Shown one piece after another: positions 7,860 through 54,530 of a stretch of DNA of 64,000 bases. The stretch comes from Eledone cirrhosa. Its lineage: Eukaryota. Under the pieces are notes generated by a model. That model worked only from the letters and a program-made list of their open reading frames with translations, did no database searches and had not been told where the DNA came from. Position 1 is the first letter of the stretch; every line of letters begins with the position of its first letter. The position numbers and the translations under genes were made by a program. The stretch lies in the NCBI GenBank assembly GCA_964016885.1, contig OZ024741.1:377828001-377892000 (forward strand). Direction: 5' to 3'.

Positions 7860-8050
7860 GGACGGTGGATTGGCAGTATCGGTAGAGAGTCGTACGCCAT
7901 GCTTTCCAGCATAGTTACGTCCCTTTACGATCTGACTTCAAATCCCGCCGAGGTTGACTTTGCCTTTCATCTTTACAGGGTCGATAAAATAAAGTACCAG
8001 TAATACACTGGGTAATTGCTGGCCTTGTGCCTAAAGTAGAAACAATTATT
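7860..8050 (+). mobile_element. tRNA-derived SINE (octopus-type), full length
   Basis: A-box-like TGGCAGTATCGG, B-box-like ACTTCAAATCC, central GCCTTTCATC..GGGTCGATAAAATAAAGTACC, tail GGCCTTGTGCC..GAAACAATTATT; multiple copies in window. Confidence 0.9.
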
Positions 8051-8767: not shown

Positions 8768-8808
8768 CGATGTACTAGTTTCAAGCTTATTACCCATTGT
8801 CAGCACCG
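8768..8808 (-). ncRNA. Type I hammerhead ribozyme motif, unit A (core CUGACAA, mutated)
   Basis: Reverse complement CGGTG-CTGACAA-TGGGTAATAAGCTT-GAAAC-TA-GTA-CATCG. Confidence 0.7.
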
Positions 8809-10171: not shown

Positions 10172-11315
10172 ACTAGCATTAAAGCGCGGCGTTGCAGGGG
10201 TCAGTAAGTTACCAAAGTTAGGTTGCACCACCCATTTTATGGCAGCAATCTTTTGTCTGCCAGGCACTGGGTAAATGAATTGCAGACCTGGACTGCCGAC
10301 GCAGGAGCTGCGCCAGCAGTGACAATTGTAGTTTCGCCTATGGATATTATCTCTGTGCAAAGAAGTGTTGAAATTTATTGTTTCACAGTACTTGCGCAAC
10401 ACGCGCGTAGACGATGCCTGCCGAACAACAGAGCTGCGATGGCGTTGTTCTGCAAGGTTGTCTAATGTGTGTTTTCTAACTTTAAGACAGTAGGGAGTGG
10501 TGTGATATGGGGGAGAGTTAGCAACTGTTTCTAGCATGTTTAGTGACCTCATAGAGGATATTATTGTGTATAGTAAATGGACGGTGGATTGGCAGTATCG
10601 GTAGAGGGTCGGACGCCATGCTTTCCAGCATAGTTACGTCCCTTTACGATCTGAGTTCAAATCCCGCCGAGGTTGACTTTGCCTTTCATCCTTACGGGGT
10701 CGATAAAATAAAGTACCAGTAATGCACTGGGTAATTGCTGGCCTTGTGCCTAAATTAGAAACAATTATTGTGTATAGTAAATGAACTGATACCTTTTTCT
10801 TCCACGTTTGTTGATAGATGTTTTATAAAAGATTTATCGCTATTTTTGTTGTTGTTGAATACATTTATCTGTTGCTTTTGAATAATTGTTGTTTCGTATG
10901 AAATGTAATAAGTTCTCTTTGTCATTGAAGTAAATAAATGTTTGACCGTTCCACACTCAAAAACAAACTTCCCTCTCTCTCTCCCTCTCACTCTCTCTCT
11001 CTTAAAGTTTGTAAGTTTAATCGCATACCAGAAAAAGTTGCAGCATGTATGTAGTTTTATCGAATTTTAAGAGGAGTAGAGAGAGGTAAAATGATTGTAT
11101 TAGAGGGGTAAAGCGTCATATATTTAGTTTGATCGATTATTTCCGTAATTGTGGGTGAGTTTGAATGAAATAAATAGTCGTTGTCCTAAGTTAAACCATT
11201 TACAACATTCTTACAGTCTTGAGTCGAATCGGTTTGAAATTGTGCAAATGTATAAACATGGAACATACACACACACACACACAACAACAACAATCTGCAT
11301 TTTATAGATAATGAT
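10172..11315 (-). mobile_element. Probable non-autonomous Helitron (interrupted by a SINE)
   Basis: CTAG at 10173-10176 beside a degenerate GC-rich hairpin (GCGCGGCGTTGCAGGGG); far end has AATCGG..ATGTATAA..(CA)n..TTTATAGAT resembling non-autonomous Helitron 5' ends. Confidence 0.45.
10580..10770 (+). mobile_element. tRNA-derived SINE with 20-bp target-site duplication
   Basis: Same consensus as 7860-8050, B box GAGTTCAAATCC; ATTATTGTGTATAGTAAATG at 10560-10579 and 10764-10783. Confidence 0.93.
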
Positions 11316-11907: not shown

Positions 11908-11968
<61 letters not shown>

Positions 11969-12029
11969 GTTTCTCATATAGGCACAAGACCATCGATTTG
12001 TGGGAGGAGAAAGTCGATTAACTCGACAC

Positions 12030-12110
12030 TAGTGTGTGACTGCTACTTTATTTTATCGACCCCTTGAGGATGAAAGACCAAGTTAACCTAGGGGGGATGT
12101 TACCTCAAAT
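12030..12110 (-). mobile_element. Degenerate SINE central-domain fragment
   Basis: TACTTTATTTTATCGACCCC..AGGATGAAAG matches reverse complement of SINE core. Confidence 0.6.
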
Positions 12111-21775: not shown

Positions 21776-22014
21776 GGGTGTCATATTAAGTTCTGGTATT
21801 TATACATTTAGGTAGTGCTAAGGGAGGGGTGGTGGCTGCGGGGGGGGGGGGCTAGGATGGTATTTAGATACACAGGACCACAACATGGTACAGGCCGTTT
21901 TTTCTGTGGGGAGTGGTCAATTAGCCAGAGTGCTTTTTTGAAATAAATAAATAAGTAAATAAATAAATAAATAAATGAATAAATAGATAATTTAATAAAT
22001 AAATAAAGAAAATA

Positions 22015-22202
22015 AATGTTTCTACTTTTGGCACAAGGCCAGCAACTATCCAGTGCATTACTGGTACTTTATTTTATCGACCCCGTAAGGATGAAAGGCA
22101 AAGTTAACCTCGGCAGGATTTGAACTCAAACCATAAAGGGGCGTAACTCTTTGCTGCAAAGCATGGCGTCAGACCCTCTACCGATACTGCCAGTCCACCG
22201 CC
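22015..22202 (-). mobile_element. tRNA-derived SINE, full length
   Basis: Reverse complement of SINE consensus. Confidence 0.9.
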
Positions 22203-22221
22203 CTAAATAGGAAAAATAATG

Positions 22222-26570: not shown

Positions 26571-27299
26571 GAATGTAGAGTCCAACAAAGTCCGTAACTT
26601 GAGCAGAGACAGTAGAACCCATGGTCATGTCAAACGTTTCAGGTCTATCCGCGTGTGTTCCTAAGTCCTCTTTGAATGTAATAATATTCTTGTTTCCCTG
26701 GCTGTTAGTATAACGTCGATTTTTTCATGGGTAAGATATGCTTACTTTAATCCATATATAAGTGTTTTATTTAGTTTTATTGAGGAGAATTAGCTACACC
26801 TAATTAAAAGAAGGATTTCCTTAATAAGCGAAGGTTTGTACCGCGAAGATGCACTTTTTACATGAGTTAATCATAATAACAGTGCCATAAATAGGAGGAA
26901 AAAATGATAATAATTTGTTTTCGTAATTACGGTGTTAACATTGAAATAGAAACCAACAGTAGGAATTCAATTTTCTCGACATAACACTGGACATCAATTC
27001 TGGCCTATACAACCGATGAATTAAACTAAAGCCATTACATTAGCTACTTCTGAAACCACCCTAGAAATGTTAAAAATCCACAGTTAAAAGCGTAGAAGGA
27101 AGGATCCCTAGACTCTCAGGAAATAGGGAAATCTTCAATAGTAAGTTTAATTACTATAATAATGTATTAGGTAGAGGTGGATAGAATGACAACATATAAT
27201 GCATACACAAAATAGAAATAATTACCCACCCAAACATAGGCATAAACAAACAAATAGCATAAACACTAACATACACATAATAAATGATAGTAATAATAA

Positions 27300-27490
27300 T
27301 GTTTCTTCTTTTGGCACAAGGCCAGCAATTACCCGGTGCTGGTACTTTAATTTATCGACCCCGTAAAGACGAAAGGGAAAGTTAATCTCGGCGAGATTAA
27401 CTTTGCCTTTCATCCTTACGAGGTCGATGAAATAAAGTACCAGTAATGCACTGGATAATTGCTTGCCTTGTGCCACAATTAGAAATAGTT
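27300..27490. mobile_element. Two head-to-head SINE 3' halves forming a fold-back centred at 27391
   Basis: AAAGTTAATCTCG-G-CGAGATTAACTTT centre; SINE tail at each outer end. Confidence 0.85.
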
Positions 27491-27561
27491 ATTATTGTTA
27501 TCATTTATTGTGTTCCTGTTAGTTTTTATGCTATTTGTTTGTTTATGGCGATGAATGGGAC

Positions 27562-27616: not shown

Positions 27617-27855
27617 GTTTTCTTTATTAACCACAAGGGTTTACATAAAGTAGACATTAAGGACAGTAAAGGACAATACAGGACGGTACAAATGGGCATT
27701 TCTGCGTGTAAAAAAACAGAGGTTGAAATAAAATAACAAAGAAAAATTCCCCAATAGGGGGGAGACTTCCGAGGGACATTTGTGGAGAAAGCCCATTAAA
27801 AGACCACAGTGGCCCTGACCACCAGGGCAAGTGCCCTCTCCCAGTTTTCCACCTT

Positions 27856-30800
27856 TAGTGTACAGACACATACTCAGAGAAGGCCCATTCATTCGGGCCA
27901 TACTTGCTTCTCTCACCCATCTTTCAACAAAATGCTGGGAAGAGAGCACTTCCCTCTCTACCCTGATTTTTCTTTTCAAATGAAATTTGAAAAAGTTAAT
28001 CAGGGCATCACCGAAGAGGTAAGTGCTCGTCTTCAGCCCTTTCAAACGTGTCCAACATACTATCTCTTTCGCCATGGCCACCAGACAGATAAAAACTGCC
28101 TGCCCTTCCAGGCTAAAGAAAGGGGGCGGGGCAATCCTCACGATGGACTCAGCTGATAGCTGGATCCGTACTACACGTGACAGCAGGTGTTCGACATAAA
28201 CCCACAAGTCAGCAATGCTTGGACACTGGACGAGTGCGTGCAGGACGGTTTCGTCGCCCTGCGCGCATCTCGGACATGCCCGGCTGACGGCACCTCCATG
28301 CCTGTAGAGTTTATCCTGAACTGGCAAAGCTCCTCGGTAGCACTACCAGGCCAGGGATTTCTGGAAGTTGTCCATAGGCCCCGGCCCGAAAATCCTTCCG
28401 AAGAGATTGGCTAGTTGATTTTCGTCGACGCCTAGATTTTCTCCAAGTACGGTGTCGCTCTTCCCCTCCACTAATCCCCTATAGAACGCCAAGGTGGAGT
28501 TTCCACCGATCACATTGCCCGATTGGTCGAGGGCTGTGAGCGGCTGAAGACATTCCTGTCTCCAAGCGCTCCCTCTCGGTCTTCGCTTGACCCAGGACTG
28601 CAGCTCCGTCAAGGAGACGAGCTGGGGAAAAACGTGTCTAGCAAACGGCGACCACACCTGATCACCGTCGAGGAAGAGGTGGAGATGTCGTATCCTGAGC
28701 GCGTGTCTGCGCATCATCAGCCACGGCATGCCCAGCCCTCCACGTAGCGGGTGTTGACAGCAGATGGACCGCCTGACCATCGGAGCGCGTCCCTTCCACA
28801 AGAAGCGAAAGAGCAAACGCTCCAGCGCAGTCAGGCGGGGCTTAGGACAAGGTACGACGGTCAGGCGGTAGTAGATGACGGATGCGATGTACGCATTCGC
28901 CACCTCCGCTCGACCTTTCAGGGATAGCTTCCTCTCGGCCCATTTCTGGGTGAGAGAAGCCACCCTGCTCGTCACCTCGTCCCAGTTTTTGTCCGTCTGG
29001 AGGTTTGGACCGAACCAGACCCCTAGCAATTTAACTGTCCGTCCGTCCAGCGCCCGACAACGCTGTTGGACGGCATGGACCTGCCTCTCCAGGTGCCGAG
29101 CTGCAGGCCCACTGACTTTTCCTGGTTGATCATTGCTCCTCTCAACGCTTTGTATTCTCATAGTGTAGTGCCGATCGCCTCGATGTGTTTGGCGTTCGAC
29201 ACCACTACGATGACATCGTCGGCATATGCTGACACGGATCTTCCGCATCCTAGTTCGCGCGGGACCCCCCTCAACGTCTCCAGTTTGTGCAGTAATGGCT
29301 CGAGAGTCAATACGTACAATAGGGACGAGAGGGGACATCCTTGGCGGACCGAGCGCATGTTGTTGAACGGTTCCGAAAGGTGACCATTCACTCTCACTAC
29401 AGAGCAGATGTCGCTGTGCATGGCAGCGATCCAGCCTCTGAAGACGGGCCCAAAGCCAGCCGCCCTCAGGACTGCCGCTAGGTAACGATGGTCGACCCTA
29501 TCGAAGGCTTTCGACTGATCTAATTTGACCAAAGACCCACCCGTGCCAGGTTCCCTAGCTACCCTCTCTACGATGTATCGCATGAGGTGGAGGTTGTCGT
29601 GGATGGATCTGTCGGTAATGGCGCATGTCTGTGCCTCTCCCACCAGACCACCAACGACAAGCGCCAACCTCTTTGCTAGCACCTTGGCCAAAATCTTGAA
29701 CTCTGTGTTTAGCAGAGTTATGGGCCTAAAATTATCTATGTTATCCCCCTTGTTCGGATCCTTTCTCAGCAGCGCCACCGCTCCTCGGCTCACAGAGCTG
29801 GGAATTCTCCCGTTCTGTTGCCAGTTGCAGTAGACGTCCGCCAAGAGGCCTCCGAACAAGTTTGGGATGTGTACGTAAAGTTCATAGGGCAGACCATCCA
29901 AACCAGGCGATATACCCCTTGTGCAACTAGTCATTGCATCGCGTACTTCAGCGGTTGTTATCGGCTTTTCGCAACACTCCGCCTCAGTGGCCGCAAGCCA
30001 CGGCAGTCCGTCGAGGTAGACACTAAAGTCCATCCCGCGATCCGGCCCGCCACTACCCCCAAACAGTTGAGCGAAGTGTCGCTGAAAAGCTTCACACATT
30101 TGCCCTGGATCGAGTAGCATGCGCCCGTCGTGGTCCACCAAAGACCGGATCGTGGCTTTGTTGCCACGACGCGCCTCCGCCACTCGGGCCCATTGAACGG
30201 CTTTCGTTCCCTCGTGTCTGAGAGCACGCACCCTAGCTGTGACAACGCAGCCTTCGTGCTTTGCATTGAAGAATTGGTCAAGGGCCAATTTCGCCGCAAG
30301 TACGTCGGTCGCGATGTCTTTGCTAAGCGCCTCATCTAATTTTCTAACTAATTCTCCCCCTGCTCTATTTTTCTCTATTGCTAAAGTTTTGCTAAACCTA
30401 ATCTATTCTAATTGCTCTTTTCAGAGCAAACCACCACTTGTTGTTGACGATGGCCCCCGTCAACGCCCGCTTAACTAGTTCGCTAATCCGGTCTCTGTAG
30501 GCCTTGCGCGCTGGTAAGGACGCGTTCAACTTCCAGTAGCCGGGTCCTCGTCTATGAAGCCTATCTAAGTCAAGCACACAGATCACGAATTTGTGGTCCG
30601 TGTAGCTGACTATCTTGAATTGTGCACAGCCTATGCTAGACCTATCTATTTCCCTACAAAATACTCTATCTAGATATGATCTGGATGACCCTATGCGATT
30701 TGTCCAAGTCCACATTGGTACATTCGGGAAATCCATTCGGTACATGTCAGACAGTTCAAAACGTCTGAGCAGGTTGGTGAGACTCTTCCACTCTCCTTCC

Positions 30801-31273
30801 CTATCCACTAATACCATACAATCCCAGCGTGCATCTAAGATCCCGTTCCAGTCGCCCACTAACACTAAAGAGTGGGACGTTCCAAGAAAGGTCTCCAGAC
30901 GCCGGAAGAAATCAGGCCGCCCTGCTCCTGTCGGGGATTAGACGGCCACTAACCTGAAAGCTTGCCCGTCTCCGCTGGTCACGTCCAGCCCCACCAACTT
31001 ACCTTCTGGGTCCAGGAAGATGGCCCGTATGGCAAGATCCAAACCTCTCCGAAAAAGCACAGCAACTCCTCCCCCCGATCACGGACGGCTGGGAGATGCG
31101 TACACATCGTAGTCTCCGAAGATCGGTGCGAAAGCCTGTGCTTCGGAGATTCTGGTCTCGCTGATGGCCACTACATCTATGTTTAGTGACCTGAGGTCGT
31201 TGAGCAGGTGGCTCTGCTTCCCTGACGACCCCAAGCCACGCGCATTTATGCTGCCTATTCTGAGTGAGGTCAT
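27856..31273 (-). pseudogene. Tx1 family A ORF2 (APE, RT, C-terminal CCHC), fragmented
   Basis: SINARGL, VGDWN, SYLDR, YTDH; SPGLDG, FRPITLLN, KAFDRVDH, RQGCPLS, AYADD; CPRC..ETVLHALVQC. Confidence 0.92.
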
Positions 31274-31307
31274 GTTGAAAAGGAGTGGAAAAGATGAGAA
31301 AGACCAC

Positions 31308-33293
31308 TTACCTTACATCTCGTAGGGGAAGAACGGTTTTTCCATCCTTTTCACTGCTTGTGGTCTCCTCAGGAAGGATGTCCTTATAAATCCTCCTGGA
31401 GAGTGCTTGTCGGAAGTCTCCGATGTCTTTGGGGAATTTTTGTTTTAGTGTCATGTACGTTTTCTGTGTGATGCGAGTGATTTGTATGTGTGGAGGTGGT
31501 GTGAATTTTGGGGTTGTTGTGTAGTCTTTTTCTGTGATGCTGGTGTTGTGTTGGATGTAGTGTAATAATTGCTTGTTGTTCAAATGTAATGCTGTGTAGT
31601 GTGTATCGTTTTGGTTGTTTTGTTTTGTTTGCGTTTGTTGTGGGTTTGTTTCTGTTTCGCATTTTGGTGACTTTTGAGGTGTAGGTGATGGTGGTGCTGG
31701 GGTTAATGACGGTGATGGCGTTGGTGTTTGGGTTGATGGGGTTGGTGATGCTGGTGTGGATGGTGGCATATCTGTCCTAACTTTTTTGTTTCTTAATTTA
31801 TTTGTTTCCCTCTGTATTTTGTTTTTGGAGGGGGAAGGAAGAGAATTTTTTTCTTTTTTGGTTTCTTTTTTTTCCGGATATCGTTTCCTACTCCTCGTCG
31901 TCACAATCTGTCTCCAGTTGTGATAGGCCGGGGAGTGGAAAATCCTCCACAGGCGTTAGTTTTGGTTGTGGTGTGGTGGATGGTGTAGACGCTGGTGCTA
32001 GTTCTGAAGCGTTGGGTGGTGGTGGTGTTGGTTTTGCTGGTGGTGGTAGTGGTGTTGGTTTTGCTACTGTTGCTGGGGTTGTTGCTGTTATAGTTGCTTC
32101 TGTTGTTGCTGCTACAGTTGTTGCTGCCATCTCTGCTACTGGTGGTGTTGATGGTTGTGTCACTGGGGTGGGTAGGAGAGGTGGCGTCAACCTTTTAGCC
32201 TGAGGGCAGAAAACCCTTAGGTGGGTTCCTTCACCACAAACGACACACCTAGGTCTTCTGCCCTCGACTATTACCGTGAGGTGGATGCCGTCAGTGAGGT
32301 CTATTACCTCTGGGATCTCCTCAATACTTTTTTGGTCCGCTTGGATCAGGAGCTCCATCCCAGATCCGGACCAGTTCTCCTGCTTTTCTTTTGCTATTGC
32401 TATTATTTTCGTGTTGGCTTCGATGCCGGCGAGGAAAGCCGCTATTAGCCAGGGAATTTCGATGGCCGGTGGAACGTGGGTCACCCTGATCTTTACGAGT
32501 CTCTGGCCACAATAGCTTGGGACGAGTGTGAAGTCGTCACTTTTTAATGGGGCCATGGAGTGTTCTCTAGCCTCCTCTGGTGTTTCAAAGAACACATCCA
32601 CGGTTCCATACTTTTGCCCACGTCTGATGTGGGTTTTTCTTGCCCACACATGTCCCAAAGCTTTTTGGATTTGGGACTCGGATGCCCGTTCCACTCGGCG
32701 CGATTTTACATTTATTGTTCTATACGACACGGTGCATAGGCGCCGATGCTCCATTTTATTAGGTGGGGGTGAGGCTGACCCTGTACCCATCTTTCTTTAC
32801 CATTTGTTTGGCATTTTCTAAATCTTCCTGAGTTACCGTGAATGCTTCAAACTGTTTTGCTACTATGGCGAAACTGAGGGTCGGTTTTATAATGTCATTG
32901 TTGTTGTTGCTATCGTTATTTGTGTTAATATTAATTTTAGTTTCAGTTGTGGTGGTGGTGACGTCAGTCGTCTTTGGTGGGGAAGAGTCCATTTTGCTTG
33001 ATTTCATTTCGACATCACGAGTTAATTTATTTTTTTCTTCTTTTGTTTATGTTGTCGCGGTGGTGGTGGGCGTGGTGGTTGTCGCGTTGGTGGTGGTGAT
33101 GGAGGCTTTAACACCTGCAGTCATTGGTAATGGCGGGAAATGAATGTCTGCCTGAGACAAATTTAAAATATTGCTACTGTTATATTTTTTTTGTGTTGGC
33201 AAACGTAGTAACATTTACAATGGTGGTGTCGGTGTGAGGTGTTAATTTGTGAGGAAGGCTTTCAGCTGCTTGTTGCAGAGGTGAATTAGCCAT
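31308..33293 (-). pseudogene. Tx1 family A ORF1 (gag-like, CCHC knuckle, T/P-rich), fragmented
   Basis: CVVCGEGTHLRVFC; near-identical to ORF 62124-63503. Confidence 0.85.
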
Positions 33294-33501
33294 TTTTCTC
33301 AAAGAAATTTTTTTGATAATAATAAAAGTTTATATTTTGGGCACAAGGCCCCAATCTTTTTGGGTGTCCTTTTCGGAAAACGATGTATGTGCGCTTATAA
33401 ACAGTTAACAATAACATTTTCCATAAATGACAATTTTTAACAAACGGAAATAACAAACCTTTGCGGAGCTCACGATGATACGATTTACTACGTAGGTCGC
33501 C

Positions 33502-33534: not shown

Positions 33535-33536
<2 letters not shown>

Positions 33537-35545
33537 TTTCATTTATTAGCCACAAGGGCCGACATGTAGGGGACAATACAAAGACAGGGACAGTGGGGGT
33601 TTACAATAAGGTCGAGTAAAAGTGCACAATGGCAAGACTAATTTAACAATGAAAATATAAAATATAAAATAAACTATGCAAAATATAACAAAATAAATTC
33701 CCCGAAAGGGGGTGGACGACCCTGGGGTGATTCGGGTACCCCTCCAATCCTGAACCCCCCTGCGCTTCTAGGGCACCCAGGAGAGCACCCCTCTCCTCAA
33801 GTTAGCTAGCCTATAGGCGCATGGTCAGAGTAGGCCCATTCACACGAGCCATTCTTGCCACATTCACCCACCTTTTAGCAAATGTACTGGGGGGCAGCAC
33901 TTCTCTCTCCACCCTCACCCTCCTTTCCAGGTGAAACTTGAAGAAGTTGATGAGGGATTGGCCGAAGAGAAAAGTGTCTGTCTTTAGTCCTTTCAACCTG
34001 GTCCACCATATAATCTCTTTCGCAACTGCCACCAGACAGAAGAAAATGTCCTGCTCTTCCTGACCTAAGGAAGGTGGCGGCTCGATCTTCACTATGGATT
34101 CGGCCGATAACTGGATTCGTTCCACACGCGAGAGTAGCTGTTCGACATAACTCCACAAGTCAGTAATGCACGGACATTGGACAAGTGCGTGCAGAACGGT
34201 TTCGTCGTTCTGTGCGCATCTTGGGCAGGTCCGTCTGACAGCACTTCCGTGCCTGTAGAGTTTATCCAACATTCCAGGTGCTAGTCACCCAGTCTCGGTC
34301 TCTTCTTCACCCAGGACTGCAGCTCAGTCAAAGAAATGAGCTGCGGAAAGGCCCGTCTGATAAACGGCGACCACACCTGTTCACCATTGAGGCAGAATAT
34401 CTGGAGATGTCGCAGCTTCAACGCATGTCTGCGCAGCCTCAACGGCATGCCCAGCCCTCCGTGTAGAGGGTGCTGGCAGCAGATGGACCGCCTCACCAAC
34501 GGAACTTGTCCCCTCGACAAGAATTTGAAGAGGAGCCGTTCCAACTTGACGAGGCGCGGACGGGGGCAAGGCACGACGGTTAGGCGGTAATAGATGACGG
34601 ACGCGATGTACGCATTCGCCACCTCCGCGCGACCTTTCAGTGATAGCTTCCTCCCAGCCCATTTTTGGGTGAGACTGGCTACTCTGCTCGTTACCTCGTC
34701 CCAATTCTTTTCCACCTGGAGGTCTGGTTCGAACCAAACCCCGAGCAACTTTACTGGTCCGTCCGTCCAGCGCCCCACGACGCTGTTGGACGGCATGGGC
34801 TTGCCTCTCCAGGTTCCGAGCTGCAAGCCCACCGACTTTTCCGGGTTAAGTTTGGCTCCTGTCAACCTTTCATATTCCTTCAATAAGGTGCCGACCACCT
34901 CGATTTCTGAGGTGTTCGACACCATCACGGTGATGTCGTCCGCATAAGCCGACACCGCCTTTCCACGTCCCGGTTCGAGCGGGATGCCCTGCAACAGCTC
35001 CAGCTTCCGCAGAAAAGGTTCGAGAGTCAATACGTACAGAAGGGAAGAGAGAGGGCACCCTTGACGGACCGATCGGGAGAGCCGAAATGGTTCCAAGAGA
35101 TGGCCTTTAACCTTGACCACCGAGCGTGTGCCGCTGTGCATTGCAACGATCCAGCTTCTAAAGACAGGGCCGAAGCCAGCTGCTTTGAGGACAAACTCCA
35201 GATACCGATGGTCGACCCTATCGAATGCTTTCGATTGATCTAAATTGATCAGTGCCCCACCGAAGCCAGGTTTACACCCAACCCTCTCTATGATGTATCG
35301 CATGAGGTGGAGATTGTCGTGTATGGACTTGGCTGGGATTGCGCAAATTTGCGCCTCCCCAACCAAATCCTCGACGACAAGCGCCAATCTCTTTGCTAAC
35401 ACCTTGGCCAAAATCTTAAACTCTGTGTTGAGCAGAGTTATGGGCCTGAAGTTGTCTAATGTATCACTCTTGTTCTCGTCTTTCCTTATCAGCGTCACCA
35501 CTCCCCTGCTCACAGAACTGGGAATACTCCCATTCTGCTGCCAGT
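33535..35545 (-). mobile_element. Tx1 family B, 5'-truncated RT/CCHC copy flanked by (AAT)n
   Basis: ORFs 34281-35513 and 33811-34272 closely match 47341-49788; internal deletion near 34270. Confidence 0.93.
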
Positions 35546-36519
35546 AATAATAATAAGAATAAGGGAAGAAGACGCACGAGGTGGTAGAACGTCACGAAAT
35601 TGCTCCCGTAAGTTTTTTGATTTTTAACATATTTAAATCAATTGTGAAAGAACAATTCTTAGCACAAATGTTGCATAAAGGCACCGAATGAGGTCCCATA
35701 AAGTTTCGGATCCATATTATATTGTTGTATCGCTCACATATTCAATTTTGTATTATATATTTTGTATTCAAAAAAAGAAAATGGTTATAAATGGAACAAA
35801 ACACCCTCTGTCTACACTATATAGAACAGCAGCAATTTCAATTTCACCAACACCAGAAACTTGATACGCTACCTATCCCATCACACTAAATATAACAGCC
35901 AGAAAACGGCAATTTCACCAGCATCAGAATAATATTTACTATTATTATTGTCTCAAATTTAAAAAAATGTTTAATTCAAATTTTACGGGAATATGTCAAC
36001 ACAAAATATAATAAAAATATATATTAAACATACGAACACAAACTCATAGATACTATATCAGTAACCACAACACCACCGCTGCCACCACCCCACCACATCC
36101 ATCATCGCCGCCACCACTCATTCAATGCTACTGACACTATTCCCCTGTTAACTTGATAGAGAAAAGGGAAGGTGGCGGTAGCACTAGACAAGAGAGAGGC
36201 TAGCAAAAGATACAAATAGATTGACTTGGTGACCTTGCCACGGCCAAACGTCTACATCAACAATTATGGGACTGCTGGCTCACCCCTTTCTCACCAACAA
36301 TATAAAAATCCCCGGCACCACCACCGACATAGCCAACAACAATAACAGCCAACTACAACAAATAGTATATTATAGTATTGTAATGCACTGGGTGATTGCT
36401 GGCCTTGTGCCTGGAGTGGAGACAATTATTAATCATTTCATTCTTAAGCCACGCAATGCTCACATTAAGGAACCACTCATGATAATAACAATTTAAAAAA
36501 AAAAAACAACAAAAAGAAA

Positions 36520-42301: not shown

Positions 42302-42303
<2 letters not shown>

Positions 42304-45300
42304 TTTCTTTATTGACCACAAGGGCTGATATCAAGAAAAACATTACATACGGCACAGGACGTACAATGTGCCTTTTGTGCGTGTAAAGATTTTTATATAA
42401 GAAAAGTTAAAAAAAGACATAGAACATATATATAAACAATAAAAATGAAAATTGGAACAATGAAAAATTCCCCAATAGGGTGGAAACTTCCGAAGGTTAC
42501 TTGTGGCGAAAACCACACAAAAGACCACCGCCACCCTGACCACCTGGGCAAGCGCCCTCTCTCAATATTTCCATCTCTCAAACTACAGGCGTATATTCAG
42601 AGCGGCCCCGTTCACTCAGACAATTCTCGCTATATTCACCCACCTTTCAATAAACTTGCTAGAAGTCAGCACTTGCCTCTCCACCCTGATTTTCCTCTTC
42701 AAGTGAAACTTGAAAAAGTTAATTAGGGATTCGCCGAAGAGGAAAGTGTCTGTTTTTAACCCTTTCAACCTTGTCCACCACACCATCTCTTTCGCAATAG
42801 CCGCCAGGCAGATGAAAACCGCCTGCCCTTCCTTCTCGAAGGAAGACAGCGAGACCATCTGCACAATGGACTCAATCGATAACCAGATCAGTCCTACACG
42901 AGACAGCAACTGTTCGACATAGCTCCACAAGTCAGCGATGCTCGGGCACTGAAGGAGTGCGCGCACGACGGTTTCGTCGCTCTGCGCGCATCTCGGACAG
43001 GCTCGGCTGACGGCATTTCCGTGCCTGTAGAGCTAATCCTGAACCGGCAACGCTCCCCGGTAACACTGCCAAGGATGGGATTTTTTGAGATTATGCTTAG
43101 GTCCAGGGCTGAAAGTTTTCCGGAAGAGAGCAAACAGCTGATCTTCTTCGATGCCCAGGATCTCTCCGAGAACAACGGCGCCCTTCCCCTCCACTAGTCC
43201 TCTAAAGAACGCCGAGGTGGATGTTCCACCGATACTGGTGCCCAGCCTGCTGAGATCAGTGAGCGCCTGGAGACATTCCATTTTCCAAGCGCTATCCCTC
43301 TCTTTTTCTGACCCAGGACTGCAGCTCCGTCAAGGAGACGAAACGTGAGAAAACGTGCATGGCGAACTGCCGCCACACCTCTTCACCGTCAAGGAAGCAC
43401 CAGAGGTGTCTCAACCTCAGCGCATGTTTGCGTATCATGGTATCCCTAGTCCATCACGCAACGGGTGTTGACAGCAAATGGATCTTGTTACCAGGGGTGC
43501 ACGCCCTTTCCACAAAAAGCGAAAGAGAAGGCGCTCCATTTTGGTGAGAGTTGAGCGGGGCAAGGTACGACGGTCAGGCGGTAGCAGATGACGGACGCGA
43601 TGTACGCATTCGCCACCTCCGCCCGACCTTCAGTGACAGCCTCCTCTCGGCCCGTTTCTGAGTGACAGAGGCCACCTTGCTCGTCACCTCGCTCCAGTTT
43701 TTCTACATCGGACGTCCGAACAGAACCAGACCCCGATAAATTTAACCGGCCCTTACGTCCAGCGCCCCACGACGCTGTTGGAAGGCATGGACTTGCTTCT
43801 CCAGGTGCTGAGTTGCAAGCTCACCGACGTTTTCTGGCTTATCTTTGCTCCTGTCACCGCTTCGTATTCTTTGAGAGCGGTGCCGAGCATCTGGACGTGT
43901 TTGCTGTTCAACACCACCACGGTAACGTCATCGGCGTAAGCTGATAGGATCTACCGCATTCCTGTTCGCATGGGGCCACCTCATCGTCGGTCCACCCGTG
44001 CCGGGTTCCTTAACCACCCTCTCTATGAATTATCGCAAGAGATGGAGGTGATCGTGGATGGATCTGTCCGGAATGATGCATATCTGCTCCTCTCCCGGCA
44101 GATCACCGACGACAAGCGCCAATATCTTTGCAAACACCTTAGCCAAAATCTTGAAGTTGTCCATAACGTCCCCCTTGTTCGGATCTTTTCTCAGCAGCGC
44201 CACCGCTCCCCGGCTCACAAAACTGAGAATGCTCCCGTTCTGCTCCCTGTTGCAGTAGACATCTCTCAAGTGGTCGCCGAACAAGATCTGACATATACGC
44301 ATAAAGCTCGTAGCGCAGATCATCCAAAACTGGCGATTTACGACACGTGCAGTCAGACATCTCTCCCGTATTTCACCTGTGGTAATCAGCTTTTCGCAGC
44401 ACTGCGCTGCGCTCGTCGAGAGCAGTGGCAGTTCCTCGACGTATGCACCAAAGTCCATAATCCGATCCGGCCCGACGCCGCAGACAAACAATTGAGCAAA
44501 GTGCTGTTGAAAAGCGGTACACATCTGCTCGGGTTCGCGCAACTTGCGCCCGTTTTCATGAGGCAAAGACCGAATTATGGGCTGGTTGCTACGTCATGCC
44601 TCCACCACCCGGGCCCAATGAACGGCTTTCGTACCCCCGTGTCTTAGAGCAAGCGCTCTAGCTTTGGCAACGCAGCCTTCGTTCTATTCGTTGAAGAATT
44701 GGTCGAACACCAGCCTCGCCGCAAGCACGTCGGTTGGAGATGCCTGTCCTAAACGCCTTTTCTAGCTTTCTAACACACTCTCCCTGTACTCTATTTTCCT
44801 TTATCCCTACTCCTTTGCTAAACCTTATCGATTCTACTCTAATAGCCCTTTTCAGGGCAAACCACCACCTGTTATTGACCGTCGCACCCGTCAACGCACG
44901 CTTTGCGCGCCGAGAACGACGCGTTCAGCTTCCAGTAGCCGGGCCCTTGTCTATGGAGTCTATCTAGTTCAACTTCACAGATCACAAATATCTGGTCCGT
45001 GTAGTCGACTACTTTAAATTGTGGACAACCAACACTAGCCTTATCTGTTTCCCTACAGAATACCATGTTTGTCCGTGTCCTCATTTGCACATTTGGATAA
45101 TCCAGTTTATATGTGTCAGTCAGTTCAACACGTCTAAACAGGTTGTTGGGGCTTTTACACCCTCCTGCCCTGTCTACTAGCCCCACATAATCCCAGCGTG
45201 CATCTAAGATACCGTTCTAGTCGCCCATTAACACTAAAGAGCGGGACGTTCCAAGAAAGGTCTCTAGACCTTTGAAGAAAAATGGCCGTCCTGCTCCTGT

Positions 45301-46480
45301 TGGGACTAGGCATTGGATGGAGGGGGGGGGGGCTTCTCCTTCGCTGTCTTAAGCGGGCAAAAGACGCTGAGGTGACCATTTGACCCACAGAGATAACATT
45401 TTGGGTTTCTTATTTAACGCCTATAGGTAGTTGGAGTCCTTCCTCGATGTCTATGTTATTGGGGATAGCCACGATGCAATCCTGGTCAGTGTCTATTAGC
45501 ATTTGCATGCGTATACCTGACTAGTTCTCTCTCCCTATTTTCTATACTTGTAGCATGGTTGTCTTGTCCTCGATTCCAGCAAGTACAGATGCGGGCAGCC
45601 AAGGTATGGGCACGACGGGTGGGTCCTATGTCACTTTGACCCTCACAATGTTCTGCCCACATTAGGAGGGCACCAACACTATCTCCTCACTCTTTAGCGT
45701 TTCCAATGGGGGAAACTTCGCAACTTGGTGGGTAGTGAAAAGTACGTCTAGTGTTTGATACTTTCTGCCTCGAGTGATATGATTTTGCGTGCCCAGACGC
45801 ACCCCAAAGTCTTTGGGATTTGAGCCTCCGTGGCTTTCTCCACCCGATGTGACATTTTGTTTACGGTACGGTAAGTCACTGTCTGTAGCTGCTGGTTTTG
45901 AAAAAAATCGGGTGGAGGTTTCTGTGAAACTCTATTGGTGTTTCATGTCACCATTGGCCTTACGACTGCCATCTCCTCCTCTGTGACTAGCACTGTTTCG
46001 ATATTTCGGCCCACACCTGCAAAAGAAGTGGCCCCTTTTTTAGCGGCACCATTATTGCTGCCGCTACTGGTCTTGCTGCTGATGCTGAGATCGTTGTTAC
46101 TGGTATTGATGTCATTGTTGTTGTTTTCGTTGGTATTGTTTTTGATGTTATTGTTTTCATTGTTGTTATTCTCGTTGCTAGTGTTATGGTGGCTGTTGAT
46201 ATTATTGTAGTTTTTGTTGATACTGTTCCCACTATTATTGTTGTTGTGGCTGTTGTTATTGTCATTGTTAGTCTATCTCGACCTTACCGCTGATATTTTT
46301 GTTGTTGCTGTTGTTATTGATGGTGTTTTTGTTGGTGTTATTGTTGGTGTTGTTTGTGTTAGGAATATTTCGTAATTTTCAATATCATTAAAAATTATAT
46401 AGTATCACTTTTCCTCCGTAATATTTTGATCTAAATTTACCTTCGCTAGAACGCTGCCTTGCAGACATGTTGATAAAGTC
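42302..46480 (-). mobile_element. Tx1 family C, old internally deleted copy
   Basis: APE (GPGYWKLN), RT (SRGAVALLRKD, SIHDHLHL, AYADD), CCHC remnants and N/T-rich ORF1 remnant; 3' end abuts (AAT)n. Confidence 0.85.
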
Positions 46481-46524
46481 TCACTCTCTCTGTATTGTCT
46501 GACAGCGCTCTCTCTCTCTTTCTT

Positions 46525-47070
46525 GTGTTATCCACTGGCATCTATGCAAAGTAAACAATTTACCACATTCGGAGAAGTGGTATGAGCATAAGCCAGAGTC
46601 GGTAATAGAAAACGATCAGCTGAAGGTGCTATGGGATTTTAGGATACAGACGTACAAATAATTGGAACACAATAGGCCTGACCTGGTGGTTTGGACAAGG
46701 AAAAAAAGGTTATGCCTGATTGTAGATGTAGCCTGCCCATTTGACACGAGAGTGCAAGAAAAAAGGAGAGGGAGAAAATTAACCGATGTAGGATTTAAAT
46801 TGGGAGTTTAAAAGTATTTGGAACATGCCATGAAATCAAGGTCGTCCCGATTGTAATTAGGCGCACTAGGTACTATTTCAAAGAGTTAAAGAAGATTAGT
46901 CCAAAGAAGATTAGTATAGCCCCGCTTTTTGGAACACTTCAAACGGCATGCTTGCTGGGAACAGCAATAACCCTCCGATACGCCCGGAATATCTGAGGCT
47001 GCAGGTAGCGGCTTGATATTAATTTCAACAAACTTTCCAGTTAAATAACATCAATGACTGAAACTCAAAG
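46525..47070 (+). mobile_element. R4/Dong family 2 3' fragment with (TAA)n tail
   Basis: Colinear with 41705-42245. Confidence 0.88.
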
Positions 47071-47340
47071 AATAATAATAATAATAATGATTTCATTTAT
47101 TGGCCACAAGGGCCGACATATAGGGGACAACACAATAGACAGGGACAGTGGGGGTTTACATACAGATCGAGTAAGTATAAATAACAAAAAACAAAATAAC
47201 AATAAAAATACAACAATGAAAGTTCCCCAATAAGAGGGATCACCACCCAGGGTTGACTCAAGCACCCCACCAGTCCTGAGCCACCCGACGCTCCTAGGGC
47301 ACCCGGGAAGGGCACCCCTCTCCTTCTCGAATTCACCAGC

Positions 47341-50300
47341 CTACAGGCGCATGATCAGAGTAGGCCCACTCACGCGGGCCATTCTCGCCACATTCACCCA
47401 CCTTTCAGTAAATGTACTGGGGGGCAGCACTTCTCTCTCCACCCTCACCTTCCTTTCCAAGTGAAACTTGAAGAAGTTGATGAGGGATTGGCCGAAGAGA
47501 AAAGTGTCTGTCTTCAGTCCTTTCAACCTGGTCCACCATGCAACCTCTTTCGCTACTGCCACCAGGCAGAGGAAAATTGCCTGCCCTTCCTGACCAAAAG
47601 AAGGCGGCGGGTCAATATTCACTATGGACTCGGACGATAGCCGGATCCGTTCTACACGCGACAATAGCTGTTCGACATAACCCCACAAGTCAGCAATGCA
47701 CGGACACTGGACGAGTGCGTGCAGAACGGTTTCGTCGCTCTGCGCGCATCTCGGGCAGGTTCGTCTGACAGCACTTCCGTGCCTCTAGAGTTTATCCCGA
47801 ACCGGCAGCGGCCCCCGGTAGCACTGCCAAGCGAGGGATATCTGGAAGTTATCCATCGTCCCCGGCTCGAAAGTTCTCCGGAACATACTGGTCAGTTCTA
47901 CTTCGTTGACACCTAGAGCCTCTCCTAGTACGTCATCGTACTTGCCCTCCACTAATCCTCTATAGAAATCTTGAGTGGAAGTTCCACTGACCGCATTGCC
48001 CACCTTGCAGAGTGCAGTGAGGGCCTGGCAACATTCCCGATGGCAGTCGCCCAGTCTCGGTCTCTTCTTGACCCAGGACTGCAGCTCTGTCAAAGAGATG
48101 AGCTGCGGAAAGGCCCGTCTAACAAACGGCGACCACACCTGTTCACCGTTTAGGCAAAATATCTGGAGATGTCGCAGCCTCAGCGCATGTCTGCGCATCA
48201 TTAGCCACGGCATGCCCAGCCCTCCACGAAGAGGGTGCTGGCAGCAGATGGACCGCCTCACCAACGGGACCCGTCCCCTCCACAAAAATTTGAAAAGGAG
48301 CCGTTCCAAATTGGCGAGGCGTGGACGGGGGCAAGGCACGACGGTCAGGCGGTAGTAGATGACGGACGCGATGTACGCGTTCGCCACCTCCGCGCGCCCT
48401 TTCAGTGATAGCTTTCTCTCAGCCCATTTCTGGGTGAGGTTGGCTATCCTGCTCGTCACCTCGTCCCAATTCTTATCCACCTGGAGGTCTGGTCCGAACC
48501 AAACCCCGAGCAACTTTACCGGTCCGTCTGTCCAGCGCCCAATGACGCTGTTGGACGGCATGGACTTGCCTCTCCAGGTGCCGAGCTGCAAGCCCACCGA
48601 CTTTTCCGGGTTAAGTTTTGCTCCCGTCAACCTTTCATATTCCTCCAAATGGGTGGGGATCACCTCGATTTCCGAGGTGTCCGACACCATCACGGTGATG
48701 TCGTCCGCATAAGCGGACGCAGCCTTTCTACGTCCCGGTTCGAGCGGGATGCCCAGCAACAACTCCAGCTTCCGCAGTAGAGGCTCAAGAGTCAATACGT
48801 ACAGAAGTGAGGAGAGAGGGCACCCTTGACGGACCGATCGAGAGATCTGAAACGGTTCCGAGAGGTGGCCATTAACTTTGACCACCGAGCAGATGCCGCT
48901 GTACATTGCAGCGATCCAGCTTCTGAAGACGGGGCCGAAGCCAGCCACCTCGAGGACAGCCTCCAAGTACCGATGGTCGACCCTATCGAATGCTTTCGAT
49001 TGATCTAAATTGATCAGAGCCCCACCGAAGCCAGGTTTGCACCCAACCCTCTCTATGATGTATCGCATGAGGTGGAGGTTGTCGTGTATGGACCTGGTCG
49101 GGATTGCGCAAGTTTGCGCCTCCCCAACCAAATCTGTGACGACAAGCGCCAACCTTTTCGCTAACACCTTGGCCAAAATCTTAAACTCTATGTTGAGCAG
49201 GGTTATGGGCCTGAAATTATCTAGTGTGTCCCTCTTGTTCTCGTCTTTCCTTATCAGCGTCACTACGCCACGGCTCACAGAACTGGGAATGCTCCCGTTC
49301 TGCTGCCAGTTGCAGTAGAGCGCTTCGAGGAGATCGGAGAACAAGTCTGGCATATTTACGTAAAGCTCGTAGGGCAGACCATCCAAACCGGGTGACTTGC
49401 GACTCGAGCAGCCGACAAGGGCGTCCTGAATTTCGACTGATGTTATCGGCTCTTCGCAGCGCTCAGCGTCGGCCGTCGAGAGGCGTGGCAAGCCGTCGAG
49501 GTAGGGACTGAAGTCCGCCGCCGTCTCCGACTCACCCATCCCCCCGAACAATCGAGCAAAGTGCTGGCAAAAGGCCTCACACATCTGTTTGGAATCGCTC
49601 AGTTCGTGTCCATCTCGATCCGTCAAAGACCGAATTGTGGTTTTATTTCCACGCTGCCTCTTTGCAAAGCGAGCCCATCGGGCAGCTTTGGTTCCCTCGT
49701 TCCTCAGAGCACGCGCCTTAGCTCTGACAATGCAACCTTCGTGTTTCGCATTGAAGAAATGGTCTAGTGCCATTCTCGCCGCTAGCACGTCTGTTGCAAT
49801 GCCACTACAAATAGCCTCGTCTAACTTAGCTAACAGCCCCTCCTCCTTTCTATTTTTCTCTATTGCTACTTATTTGCTAAATCCTATCGAGGTTGCTCTA
49901 ATCTCTCTTTTGAGAGCCCCCCACCACCTGTTGTTGACAACCCCCCCCCCTGTCAACTTTTGCTTAACTAAGTTGTTGACCCGGTCCCTGTAAGCTTTAC
50001 GTGCCGGAAACGACATGTTTAGCTTCCAGTAGCTAGGTCCTAACCTACGTGTCTTATCTAGGTCGACCATACAGATCACAAGCTTGTGATCTGAATAGGC
50101 AACCGTTTTAAAATGTGGACATCCTACACTATTTCTATCTCTTTTCCTAATGAAAATCCTATCTATGTACGATCTAGATGACCCTATGCGATTGGTCCAG
50201 GTCCATACTGGCGCATTAGGGAAATCTAGTCGGTACCTGTCAGACAGTTGAAACTGGCTGATCAGGTACTTGAGGCTTTTGCACCCCCCGCTCCTATCAG

Positions 50301-50763
50301 ATACTCCCACACAATCCCAGCGTGCTTCTAAGATGCCATTCCAATCCCCTATTAACAGTAAAGGGCGAGACGTAAGCAGAAAGTGTTCCAGGCGCCTAAA
50401 GAAGTCCGGCCGACCGGCCCCAGTAGGGGCGTAGACGGCCACCAGTCTAAAGGCACCACCTTCGCTATTGCTCACGTCCAGGACCACCAACTTTCCGTCA
50501 GGATCCCGGAAGATTGACCTTACCTCGAGATCCAGACATTTCCTAAACAGCACAGCCACTCCACCTCCCATTCCCGGCCGACTAACAGATGCAAAGATCT
50601 GATAATCGTCGAAAATCGGCGCCAGTGCGCGTGTGTTGAAAATTCTGGTCTCGCTGATGGCAATTACATCCATTCCTAGTGACCTGAGGTCGTTGAGCAA
50701 GTGACCTTGCTTCCAGGGCGACCCCAGGCCACGAACATTTAAACTTCCTACTCTTATGGCCAT
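47341..50763 (-). pseudogene. Tx1 family B ORF2 (APE, RT, CCHC), nearly intact
   Basis: SLNVRGL, ISET, VYAP, IGDWN, SYIDR, SDH; 667-aa RT ORF with AYADD. Confidence 0.93.
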
Positions 50764-50792
50764 GCTGGCAGGATGAATGGGAGAGGAAAGGT

Positions 50793-52675
50793 TTACTTAC
50801 CTTCCGGGGTCTTGTGAAGGTCGGGTGGTTCGACCTCCATGGTTTGTGGGGTTTCTTTTGGGAACCCCTTTAATAGTCTTGAAGTGGGTTTTACGTTCGG
50901 GGTTCCCACATCCCGAGGAAAGCTCTTTCGAATTTCTTTGTATGAAGCGAGCGACATTCGCATCAGAAGCAAATTATCTGGTACGCGAAATGTGCTCGCT
51001 TCAAATGTGCTTCGTGCTACATGGGCCATCAATTCCTTGTTGGCCCTTCTGGCAAGCACGAAGTTTTTAATGTTTTGTTGCTCGGGTTTTATTTGTTCGT
51101 GTGATTGTGGTGGTGATAGCTTTGTTAGTGTTGTTTCTATTGTGTCTGCGTTTGTTGTGGGTGGGGTGTCTGTAGTTTCTGATGTTTGTGTGTCTATTTG
51201 TTCTTGTGTCTGTTTAGCTTGTTTGCGTTCGGGGGATTTTGGTGGTTGTGTTGGTGATGCTGTGGGGAAAATGTTTGTGTGGGTGGTGTGTGTATTTTTT
51301 TTGTGGGGGTGTTTGTGCTTTGTGGATTTCTTTTTTTTTTGTGTTTTGTTTTTTGTATTTTGGGGGACTTTGGTTTTCCCTCATCTTCACTGCTGGAGGA
51401 TGAGGGGTCTGTGGCTGTGAGCGTGTTTGTGTCTGAGTGAGTGTTTATGTTCTTGTTCGTGTGTGTATTTTGGGGGGGGGGGGTGGGAGAGCTTTCCTCG
51501 TTTCCCCCCTGGGTGTGCAATTTTGGTGGTTCCATTGTTGACGGTGTTGCTGGTGGTCCTTGTCCCGGCGTCGCCAGCAGTGGAATCTTTCGACACCTTG
51601 CGCTTTTCGGCAGTTGAGGGCAGAAGGCTCGCAAGTGTGTCGTTTCCCCACAAAGGAAACGATGCGGCCTTTTGCCCTCAGTCATTATATGCAACACCCT
51701 CCCGTTTTGGAGGCGGATGTGGTCCGGGATTGCTTTTACGTTTTCGGGTCTAATTTGGAGCAGTATCTCCAGATCAACCCCGGACCAGTCGTTCCTGGCA
51801 GTTCTCGTTGCCTCTACCGGGACTGTATCCGTTCCTTCCACGATTACGCAACCCAGGAGCCACCACATATCAAGTCCTGGTGGAATCCTCTGAATGCGCA
51901 CACGTGCTATTCGTTTTCCCATGTGGGAGGGGTACATTATGACCTTGCTAGTTTTGCAAGGGGTCATTGAATGCTTCACAGCGAGGGCTACAGACTTGAA
52001 CAGCACCGAAACGGTGCCGTATTGCCTGCCCCTCTCTATGAAGTCTGTGTCCTCTCTGATATATTTCAGTGCGGCTTCTATATCAGCTTGAGCGATTATC
52101 GTTGCCCTCTTTGTCTCTACTGAGATGCATCTGAAATGCACCGTTCTTTTTTCCACTGCCTCAATGGCTTCTGCCGGGACAGTTAAGTTTGCCCAGGTCT
52201 GCTCTTGATTTATGATTTTCCAGGCCTGGGCCAACTTTTCCTCTCTGTTGGTTAAGTCGATGCTGTAGCATGGTCTCCTTTTAGCCGCTGCCACAGCAGC
52301 GAAGGTGTTCTTGTTGGTGTTGTCACTGTTGTTGTTCTTGTTGGTGTTGCTGCTGCTATTGCTGTTGTTGTTCTCCCCTGTGTCGTGGTTACCCTCTGTG
52401 CTGTTGGCCTTGTTGGTGCTGCTGTTGTCGCTACTATTACTCTCTGTGCTGTTCATTTTGTTGGTGCTCTCACTATTACCACCTTCTGCGCTGTTCGGCT
52501 TGTTGGTGTTGGTGTTGTCGCTGTTACCACCTTCCGCGCCGCTCGGCCCGTTGGTGCTGGCACTGTCGCTGCTCACACTCGTGCTGGTGGCGCTCCTCGC
52601 CCCACCTCTCCTCTCAACGCTCAAGTCGCCGTTGCACGACAGCAGACCCGCCTCTAGGGGGCGTGGCTCCGTCAT
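50793..52675 (-). pseudogene. Tx1 family B ORF1 (gag-like)
   Basis: RGRQYGTV and (R)FLCGETTHLRAFC homologous to family A ORF1; S/N-rich N-terminal repeats. Confidence 0.85.
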
Positions 52676-52989
52676 GTTTTTTTTGAGAAAAAAATTATTA
52701 TTTTTCCAAAATAAAGTTCAAATATTTGGGCCAAAAGGCCCAAATATTATGAGTTATTCCTTCACAGGATACAAATGAATGTCTTATAATGCTTCAGCGG
52801 TACAAAAAAAAATAAACAATTCTCCACAATTAATCCTCAAAAAATTGCTTGCTCACGGAGCTTCAAAAAACGTAAATCCACTTTCGTCAATAATAATAAT
52901 AATAATGATCATAATAATAGTAGGGATATCCAAAACTAAAACAATAGAGAAACACCAAACTCGCTAAATCTGATTGAACTGCAATAATA

Positions 52990-54336: not shown

Positions 54337-54530
54337 GGCGGTGGATTGACAATATCGGTAGAGGGTCGGAAACCATGCTTTCCAGCATAGTTATGTCCCT
54401 TTACGATCTGCGTCGTTCAAATCCCGCCGAGGTTGACTTTGCCTTTCATCCTTACGGGGTCGATAAAATAAAGTACCTGTAATGTACTGGGTAATTTTTG
54501 GCCTTGTGCCAAAAGTAGAAACAATTATTT
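54337..54530 (+). mobile_element. tRNA-derived SINE, full length
   Basis: Matches SINE consensus; ATTATTT on both sides. Confidence 0.9.

Follow-up and report, generated by a model that had tools for sequence, protein, structure and literature searches.

The repeat at positions 7,860 to 8,050 of this stretch is a SINE whose 3′ end carries a small hairpin with a CTTGT loop, and the locus raises the question of which LINE copies it. Throughout, the window means the whole stretch of 64,000 nt that was analysed. A sequence-only reading of the window had proposed that the SINE is mobilised by ATT-targeting Tx1 elements sharing its 3′ stem-loop. From comparison of the sequences we consider it very probable that the SINE is copied in trans by a Tx1 ORF2 protein, and we place the probability that Tx1 elements mobilise it by recognising the CUUGU hairpin at about two in three.

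The SINE and the Tx1-like LINEs

The SINE, which we take to be octopus-like, measures ~190 nt in its short form and up to ~220 nt in its long form. Its exact tail pattern has 148,838 matches in the 3.0-Gb genome, against 0 for reversed-pattern controls, and the 83 tails found in 800 kb of evenly spaced samples extrapolate to ~310,000 copies. Sampled copies are 38-219 nt long, 5′-truncated and flanked by duplications, and no poly(A) was found at SINE ends. A B box matches at 10655 and an A-box-like sequence, one base off the consensus in young copies, lies at 10590. The assignment of the SINE as tRNA-type rests on these boxes, as ARAGORN and Rfam gave no tRNA match and Rfam, at the gathering score, no snRNA match. 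Regarding the MetaSINE superfamily, which carries a 66-bp Meta domain behind the tRNA head, two motifs of the SINE body were not found in the searchable supplement, and comparison by eye showed no likeness to the BivaMeta lines. The copies in the window are the following.

7860..8050, plus strand: SINE copy, short form; tail hairpin GGC-CTTGT-GCC at 8021-8031, junction ATTATT from 8045
10579..10769, plus strand: SINE copy, near full length; A-box-like sequence 10590-10601, B box 10655-10663, hairpin 10740-10750; 20-nt target duplication beginning ATTATT at 10560-10579 and 10764-10783
11963..12110, minus strand: older long-form SINE fragment; stem GGT/GCC, then (TA)n
22011..22203, minus strand: SINE copy; hairpin 22030-22040
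27295..27398, minus strand: SINE copy, 5′-truncated; hairpin 27313-27323
27384..27493, plus strand: SINE copy, 5′-truncated, with a mutated stem; back to back with the 27295..27398 copy
36380..36430, plus strand: SINE 3′ fragment; hairpin 36401-36411
54339..54529, plus strand: SINE copy; hairpin 54500-54510
56593..56784, plus strand: SINE copy, long form; hairpin 56755-56765

The six SINE tails reported by the sequence-only reading were all found in place; in the copies at 22030 and 27313 the hairpin is present and the junctions have decayed. SINE copies are often neighbours, in tandem or back-to-back order, the later one having used the ATTATT of the earlier as its insertion site (window 27295-27493; loci L039-L042, L198 and L209), and 37-nt units of the SINE tail alone form a tandem array (L091-L102; G000:C1:126428886-126429318).

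The LINEs of the window that bear on the question are listed below, together with one hairpin in a 5′UTR to which we return later.

27617..33501, minus strand: Tx1-like LINE, full length, ORFs broken; 3′ hairpin AACC-CTTGT-GGTT at 27629-27641; (ATT)n on both sides
33339..33351, minus strand: 5′UTR hairpin GGGC-CTTGT-GCCC of the LINE 27617..33501, ~45 nt before the first ATG; resembles the SINE tail
33535..35545, minus strand: Tx1-like LINE, 5′-truncated; 3′ hairpin GGCC-CTTGT-GGCT at 33548-33560
42302..46600 (5′ limit approximate), minus strand: Tx1-like LINE with deletions, sitting in the (TAA)n tail of a Dong/R4-like element; 3′ hairpin GCC-CTTGT-GGT at 42315-42325
47089..52888, minus strand: Tx1-like LINE, full length; 3′ hairpin GGCC-CTTGT-GGCC at 47102-47114; ORF1 frame 51194-52717, ORF2 47344-50763 (endonuclease, RT, zf-RVT) with two in-frame stops
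61783..64000, plus strand: 5′ part of a Tx1-like LINE of the same family as 27617-33501; preceded by (ATT)n

ORF2 of these elements matches the Pfam families Exo_endo_phos, RVT_1 and zf-RVT, and Xenopus Tx1L ORF2 (P14381) is a homologue (E 3.6e-72; RT ~36% identical). An RT tree of 33 rows places them within the L1/Tx1 group, excluding RTE, CR1 and R4, with support of 98/96 and long outgroup branches. Inside the group, the tree leaves a polytomy between Tx1L with its fish relatives and vertebrate L1, the latter represented by no named canonical L1, while pairwise RT scores are 194-236 bits to Tx1L-clade rows versus 131-172 to presumed L1 rows. Since the tree does not separate Tx1 from L1, "Tx1-like" is the safe name; we write Tx1 for short.

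The Tx1-like tail pattern has 22,926 genome matches, in at least five tail types. When 30 of these loci were fetched, ORF2 similarity lay within 1.5 kb in 24 and the other 6 were short 3′ fragments. In the 800 kb of evenly spaced samples Tx1 contributes the most LINE coding sequence, 28.7 kb, followed by Dong (21.4), RTE (7.7) and CR1 (1.9). The sequence-only reading had called for a repaired ORF2 in a mobilisation assay; such repair is unnecessary, as the genome contains natural copies in which both ORFs are open (ORF1 and ORF2 of 698+1139 aa and 638+1145 aa). A fragment of the LINE matches an Octopus sinensis gene model, and relatives were found at 39-44% and 79% identity. Among 80 metagenome loci, mostly 22-45% identical and often without 3′ ends, there was one match to the hairpin pattern, unrelated in appearance.

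Tx1 families retain the hairpin but terminate in different microsatellites, (ATT)n, (ATCT)n and (AT)n, and full-length copies of the ATT family have (ATT)n on both sides. Families with ATT, ATCT and AT targets can be close relatives, with ORF2 70% identical between L220 and L190 (also L010, L015, L016, L074 and L210); they provide a set of natural variants in which endonuclease specificity could be mapped. Some Tx1 retrocopies are tiny, 21-36 nt, reaching barely beyond hairpin and tail and each with a 13-18 nt duplication (L230, L227, L222, L221, L224, near position 1500).

By Pfam RT matches the window also holds Dong/R4-like and RTE-like elements, whose classes we presume from protein motifs; the RTE-like element at 1145-3059 (plus strand) has in-frame stops and a C-terminal zinc-finger-like stretch. 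Near-perfect long inverted repeats with arms of ~390-400 nt lie at 4210-5170 and 8693-9970.

The shared 3′ end and its insertion sites

All four LINE tails named by the sequence-only reading were recovered, their motifs on the minus strand being the sense strand of the LINEs. Behind the hairpin, each of them reads AATAAA(T)GAAA, then two bases and (ATT)n, and lacks poly(A), as had been described. A combined motif of a 3-bp stem, the CTTGT loop, GAAA and ATT occurs 11 times in the window; over 100 dinucleotide shuffles it averaged 0.02 occurrences and never exceeded 1. The 11 matches are copies of a few families, and hence not independent events.

Anchored at the junction and aligned without gaps, the SINE and Tx1 have a common end consisting of a stem of 3-4 bp, CTTGT, 10 nt, GAAA, 2 nt and ATTATT, the distance from loop to GAAA being 10 nt in the SINE and 10-11 nt in Tx1. 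Ungapped 3′-anchored identity between six SINE tail variants and eight Tx1 ends was 14-18/24. The same scoring gave 7-14/24 for eleven CR1, RTE, Dong-like and I-like ends, so that no other LINE clade among the sampled ends matched the SINE tail better; a better match elsewhere would have counted against the proposed partnership. Most sites preceding ATTATT score 5-13 (1,385 sampled); 20 of the matches listed score 14-17, 16 of them being recognisable SINE or Tx1 ends. The homology spans only ~24 nt, without upstream extension. Among the LINEs sampled, an incomplete set, the SINE 3′ end is common to one lineage, the Tx1-like one, over a short stretch.

The loop was described in the sequence-only reading as invariant, which is true of the window. 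Genome-wide we anchored 85 Tx1 ends by ORF2 homology, in a set that includes loci fetched for stem mutants. CTTGT is present in 46 of 49 ATT-type ends, and invariance breaks down in the ATCT-type ends, where it occurs in 14 of 28 (CCTGT in 8, CTGGT in 3, others in 3). The claim that the stem covaries was borne out, with pairs 2 and 3 changing on both sides in an alignment of 15 rows (11 Tx1, 4 SINE) that holds few independent events. The closing C-G pair is invariant. At pair 2, Tx1 has C-G where the SINE has G-C; at pair 3, the Tx1 families vary between G-C, G-U and A-U; and 8/15 rows lack pairing at pair 4. The covariation score was 0.379, compared with a shuffled mean of 0.152; none of 500 shuffles reached 0.379 and slid controls gave at most 0.11. 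The four SINE rows represent one event, which leaves only a handful of independent ones. Genome-wide we found no abundant Tx1 family with the GGC/GCC stem of the SINE, only 117 scattered double mutants, among which T-A pairs were not counted as covariation because they are expected from transition bias.

The hairpin is conserved although the 3′UTRs upstream of it in the window are only 54-69% identical in pairwise comparison; the earlier statement that these 3′UTRs differ holds in that they have diverged, while they remain related. AATAAA is present in the Tx1 tail and absent from the SINE, which fits a Pol II poly(A) signal that only the LINE would need. The six SINE tail variants examined all keep the loop, complementary arms, the 10-nt spacing and GAAA.

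We then compared insertion sites. We examined 78 random SINE copies whose 5′ boundary was defined; 39 showed a duplication of 9 nt or more at any offset, against 2/78 in a shifted control. In 32 of the 78 the duplication starts exactly at the 3′ junction, with lengths of 9-21 nt, and 22 of those 32 begin ATTATT, which indicates that ATTATT is the target. The ATTATT at the SINE end had been noticed before, and it is indeed there, as the start of the target-site duplication and not as a separate tail. For Tx1, 30 copies were fetched from 243 ends matching a short-ATTATT pattern, of which 6 had their 5′ end outside the locus; 13 of the 24 evaluable copies have junction-start duplications of 9-19 nt, with abutment judged by eye and one ambiguous case (L247) left out of the count. 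An unconstrained downstream control also reached at least 9 nt in 8/30, so it is abutment to LINE sequence that carries the Tx1 result. Scoring was boundary-based for the SINE and CR1 and followed a slightly different rule for Tx1; between SINE and Tx1, duplication lengths showed no detectable difference (medians 14.5 versus 14, p=0.63). The ATT run after the end has a median of 2 units in the SINE (n=74) versus 6 in Tx1 (n=34); the longer Tx1 runs may come from more extensive AUU pairing in cis, or from long inserts being selected against where DNA is unique. Together, the best end match and the same-length, junction-start ATTATT duplications give computational support to the proposal that ATT-targeting Tx1 elements mobilise the SINE.

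In the islands where these elements accumulate, Tx1 and SINE copies insert antisense in the (TAA)n tails of Dong/R4-like elements, resulting in nested arrangements, and one element supplies the target of another (window 42210-42302, 47036-47089 and 61718-61782; L194 and L202).

Candidate partners and the role of the hairpin

Ends of other LINEs were gathered from the samples and from RVT_1 and Exo_endo_phos_2 searches, a non-exhaustive set. Read in sense, Dong/R4-like elements terminate in (TAA)n, which is the opposite strand, and they score 7-10/24; RTE elements end in (GAT)n and score 7-10/24; I-like elements have (CAA)n-type ends and score 8-11/24. All three were rejected as partners. In the LINEs L452, L453 and L468, which by their motifs are presumably I-group-like, the RT is followed by what appears to be an RNase H region, and the ends are of (CAA)n type.

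CR1 required closer attention, and families 1-4 were compared, with duplications tested in families 1 and 3. We regard it as improbable that a CR1-type or other unsampled LINE is the true partner and that the Tx1 likeness reflects convergence on a common design of GC stem and GAAA. What speaks for this explanation is that CR1 family 1 is young and ends in (ATT)n (2,724 tail matches), so that having an (ATT)n tail is not peculiar to Tx1; that the tail of CR1 family 3 aligns with gaps to one SINE variant (score 7); that CR1 and L2 are the reported partners of other mollusc SINEs in the accessible text of two papers (PMC4824008, PMC4758252); and that LINE families were sampled only in part, a PF09004 search having given no match, as did its own controls. 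In gapped alignment two CR1 ends beat shuffles, with scores up to 7 and 6 versus up to 11 for Tx1, which makes this a weak control. Age does not tell the candidates apart: a comparison of age profiles had been suggested, and nearest-neighbour medians of SINE and Tx1 (95.4% and 96.6%) do overlap, as does CR1 at 98.1% in a set picked by exact 31-mer and biased young. Against a CR1 partner, however, both families tested lack the CUUGU loop and lack junction-start duplications. Family 1 has a different hairpin and scores 9-10/24; 0 of its 22 evaluable copies (of 30) have junction-start duplications of at least 9 nt, and five carry repeats of at least 9 nt at offsets of 12-60, mostly in microsatellite or tandem-repeat flanks. 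For family 3 (910 tail matches), junction-start duplications were found in 0 of 9 evaluable copies (of 20) and ATTATT after the end in 0/20. Furthermore, the SINE hairpin with a non-SINE 4-nt upstream context has 244 genome matches, and none of the 30 viewed is a recognisable LINE end, in a test that would miss a LINE having the upstream bases of the SINE. Family 3 ends in TATCAAAGT repeats and (AT)n; most of the 20 copies (L467, L472-L491) show this order, suggesting a preference for AT repeats.

With Tx1 as the favoured partner, we propose the following route. Pol III would transcribe the SINE from its internal A and B boxes and Pol II would transcribe Tx1, with AAUAAA as poly(A) signal. The Tx1 ORF2p would bind the CUUGU loop and probably also GAAA, and its endonuclease would nick the AAT strand after 5′-AATAAT, before the next base (N). 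The AUUAUU in the RNA, 16 nt past the loop, would pair with the freed 3′ end in target-primed reverse transcription; this pairing at the nick would give reverse transcription a fixed-register start, leaving poly(A) uncopied. The duplication would arise from a second nick at a distance of 9-21 nt. On this scheme the SINE tail is likely an old capture of the Tx1 3′ end in which one base pair has since flipped.

Mobilisation by Tx1 could also be relaxed, with pairing of AUUAUU to the target, or primary sequence, being what matters, and the hairpin being a relic in the SINE or serving Tx1 3′-end processing by AAUAAA. We hold this to be unlikely, but several observations point towards it. The Tx1 hairpin is favoured in folding predictions, with median pairing probability 0.82-0.87, while the 3-bp hairpin of the SINE is disfavoured (0.04-0.09; 1.3-1.8 kcal/mol above the minimum) and appears in the minimum-energy fold of 1/4 window copies; none of eight 3′-end folds was significantly more stable than shuffles (z -1.55 to +1.10). 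The role of the hairpin is read from covariation, and protein binding could supply the stability that the SINE hairpin lacks. The SINE stem is, moreover, unlike every abundant Tx1 stem, and the loop varies in the ATCT-targeting families. TATCTATC almost never follows the SINE tail (1 SINE in 11 matches), though many ATCT-type Tx1 elements have the same loop, which fits targeting by RNA-DNA pairing. Finally, SINEU is inferred to be mobilised by Tx1-Mar, and in the accessible text of that report no 3′ end common to the two was detected (PMC4494074). What argues against a dispensable hairpin is that in the six variants examined the SINE retains the loop, arms, 10-nt spacing and GAAA while having lost AATAAA, and that at pair 2, where it differs from Tx1, both bases have changed and pairing is kept. 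We prefer recognition of the hairpin to relaxed mobilisation.

A further question concerns where the SINE tail came from. Tx1 5′UTRs fall into at least six types, and four of these have a GGG...CCC hairpin shortly upstream of the first ATG (window 33339-33351 and 52715-52790, both minus strand; L063, L124 and L128); the type-B 5′UTR fold is very stable (z -5.2). The type-A motif matches the SINE tail at 17-19/24 ungapped, slightly above the Tx1 3′ end, and has the GGC/GCC stem of the SINE, then TTTATT. Such a likeness, recurring in form near the first ATG of four 5′UTR types, would be expected if the SINE tail derived from this hairpin or if the 5′UTR had captured a SINE tail, and Tx1 proteins may bind one and the same hairpin at the two ends of their RNA. 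We consider this origin highly doubtful. In a sister lineage the loop is CTTGA (54 of 60 matches, with a pattern that excluded the commonest CTTGT context) and in other types it is TTTT-like, so that CTTGT in the 5′UTR may itself be derived; the remainder of the 5′UTR does not align to the SINE; and none of 20 loci viewed is an insertion ending at the 5′UTR hairpin, all 20 continuing into the ORF1 region. The 5′UTR reading concerns origin and is compatible with mobilisation by Tx1.

Taking hairpin recognition by Tx1 further, we tentatively raise the idea, somewhat against the odds, of a fully stringent metazoan L1-group lineage whose ORF2p reads the CUUGU pentaloop. One of the largest SINE expansions in the host would ride on a 24-nt mimic, and the same protein may bind the look-alike hairpin upstream of ORF1, controlling translation or 5′-end completion. 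If true, this would favour stringent recognition being the ancestral state of the L1 group, for which it would also provide the smallest testable recognition element.

Comparison with known LINE–SINE pairs

In mammals, L1 recognises poly(A), and almost any RNA can be mobilised by it. On the basis of examples from plants and an alga, the question has been raised, in the text available to us, whether the ancestors of L1 recognised a specific 3′ structure (PMC3472496). If a lineage of the L1 group in an animal had a conserved and covarying 3′ hairpin that a SINE copies, stringent recognition would extend to animals, and a Tx1 partnership would reveal what drives a SINE family with several hundred thousand members.

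The closest counterparts within the L1 clade, according to the accessible portions of two reports, are the monocot LINE1-1_ZM with ZmSINE2/3 and the Chlamydomonas L1-1_CR with SINEX-3_CR, in which an L1-clade LINE has a 3′ end in common with tRNA SINEs; the monocot pair also has a hairpin with compensatory stem changes (PMC3472496, PMC3747384). Those plant and algal pairs share ~50-80 nt; the present pair differs in its animal host and in having a LINE that targets microsatellites. As far as the accessible text of Ohshima's survey goes, three SINEs have L1-clade tails, all from plants or an alga (PMC3472496), and Table 1 of the survey, in the part available, holds no tail pair with Tx1 or an animal L1 (PMC3747384).

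Among Tx1 elements proper, the crocodilian SINEU/Tx1-Mar case is similar in that trans-mobilisation by Tx1 was inferred from target preference and age; in the accessible text SINEU has snRNA heads and poly(A) tails, with no LINE sharing the SINEU-1 3′ terminus (PMC4494074), in contrast to the tRNA-type head, absence of poly(A) and shared 3′ end seen here. Our search of the literature, as distinct from Repbase, Dfam and SINEBase entries, found no published Tx1-SINE tail pair, and SINEU was the sole Tx1-mobilised SINE in it. Kibi, Koshi and Xenopus Tx1L, as described in the same partly available source, resemble the present LINEs in having two ORFs, an APE endonuclease and RT, and insertion into microsatellites (PMC4494074). 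Unlike those, the targets here are (ATT)n, (ATCT)n and (AT)n, and the RT is only ~36% identical to that of Tx1L, a sister position to which the tree does not resolve. Papers on cephalopod and mollusc repeats name L1-Tx1 and SINEs without pairing them in their accessible text (PMC13282606, PMC8967140, PMC10294476, PMC4758252, PMC4824008, PMC7245038). In octopus, according to the available part of one of these papers, SINEs make up a major share of the genome and most recently active families lack a classification (PMC13282606).

In form, the pair described here most resembles the stringent L2 pairs UnaL2/UnaSINE, ZfL2-1 and ZfL2-2, which have a short 3′ stem-loop with conserved loop and variable stem, and a short repeat in place of poly(A); the ZfL2 ORF2p reads the loop specifically and the stem generically, in the accessible text of the report (PMC4176376). 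The differences are that our LINE is L1-group/Tx1-like, with duplications of 9-21 nt at a defined ATT site, that ~24 nt and a stem of 3-4 bp are shared, and that recognition is predicted here and shown for ZfL2. In conclusion, a tail partnership of this kind between an animal SINE and an L1-group/Tx1-like LINE is absent from the surveys checked, and our comparison suggests that the SINE-Tx1 pair likely works in the way of the stringent L2 LINE-SINE pairs.
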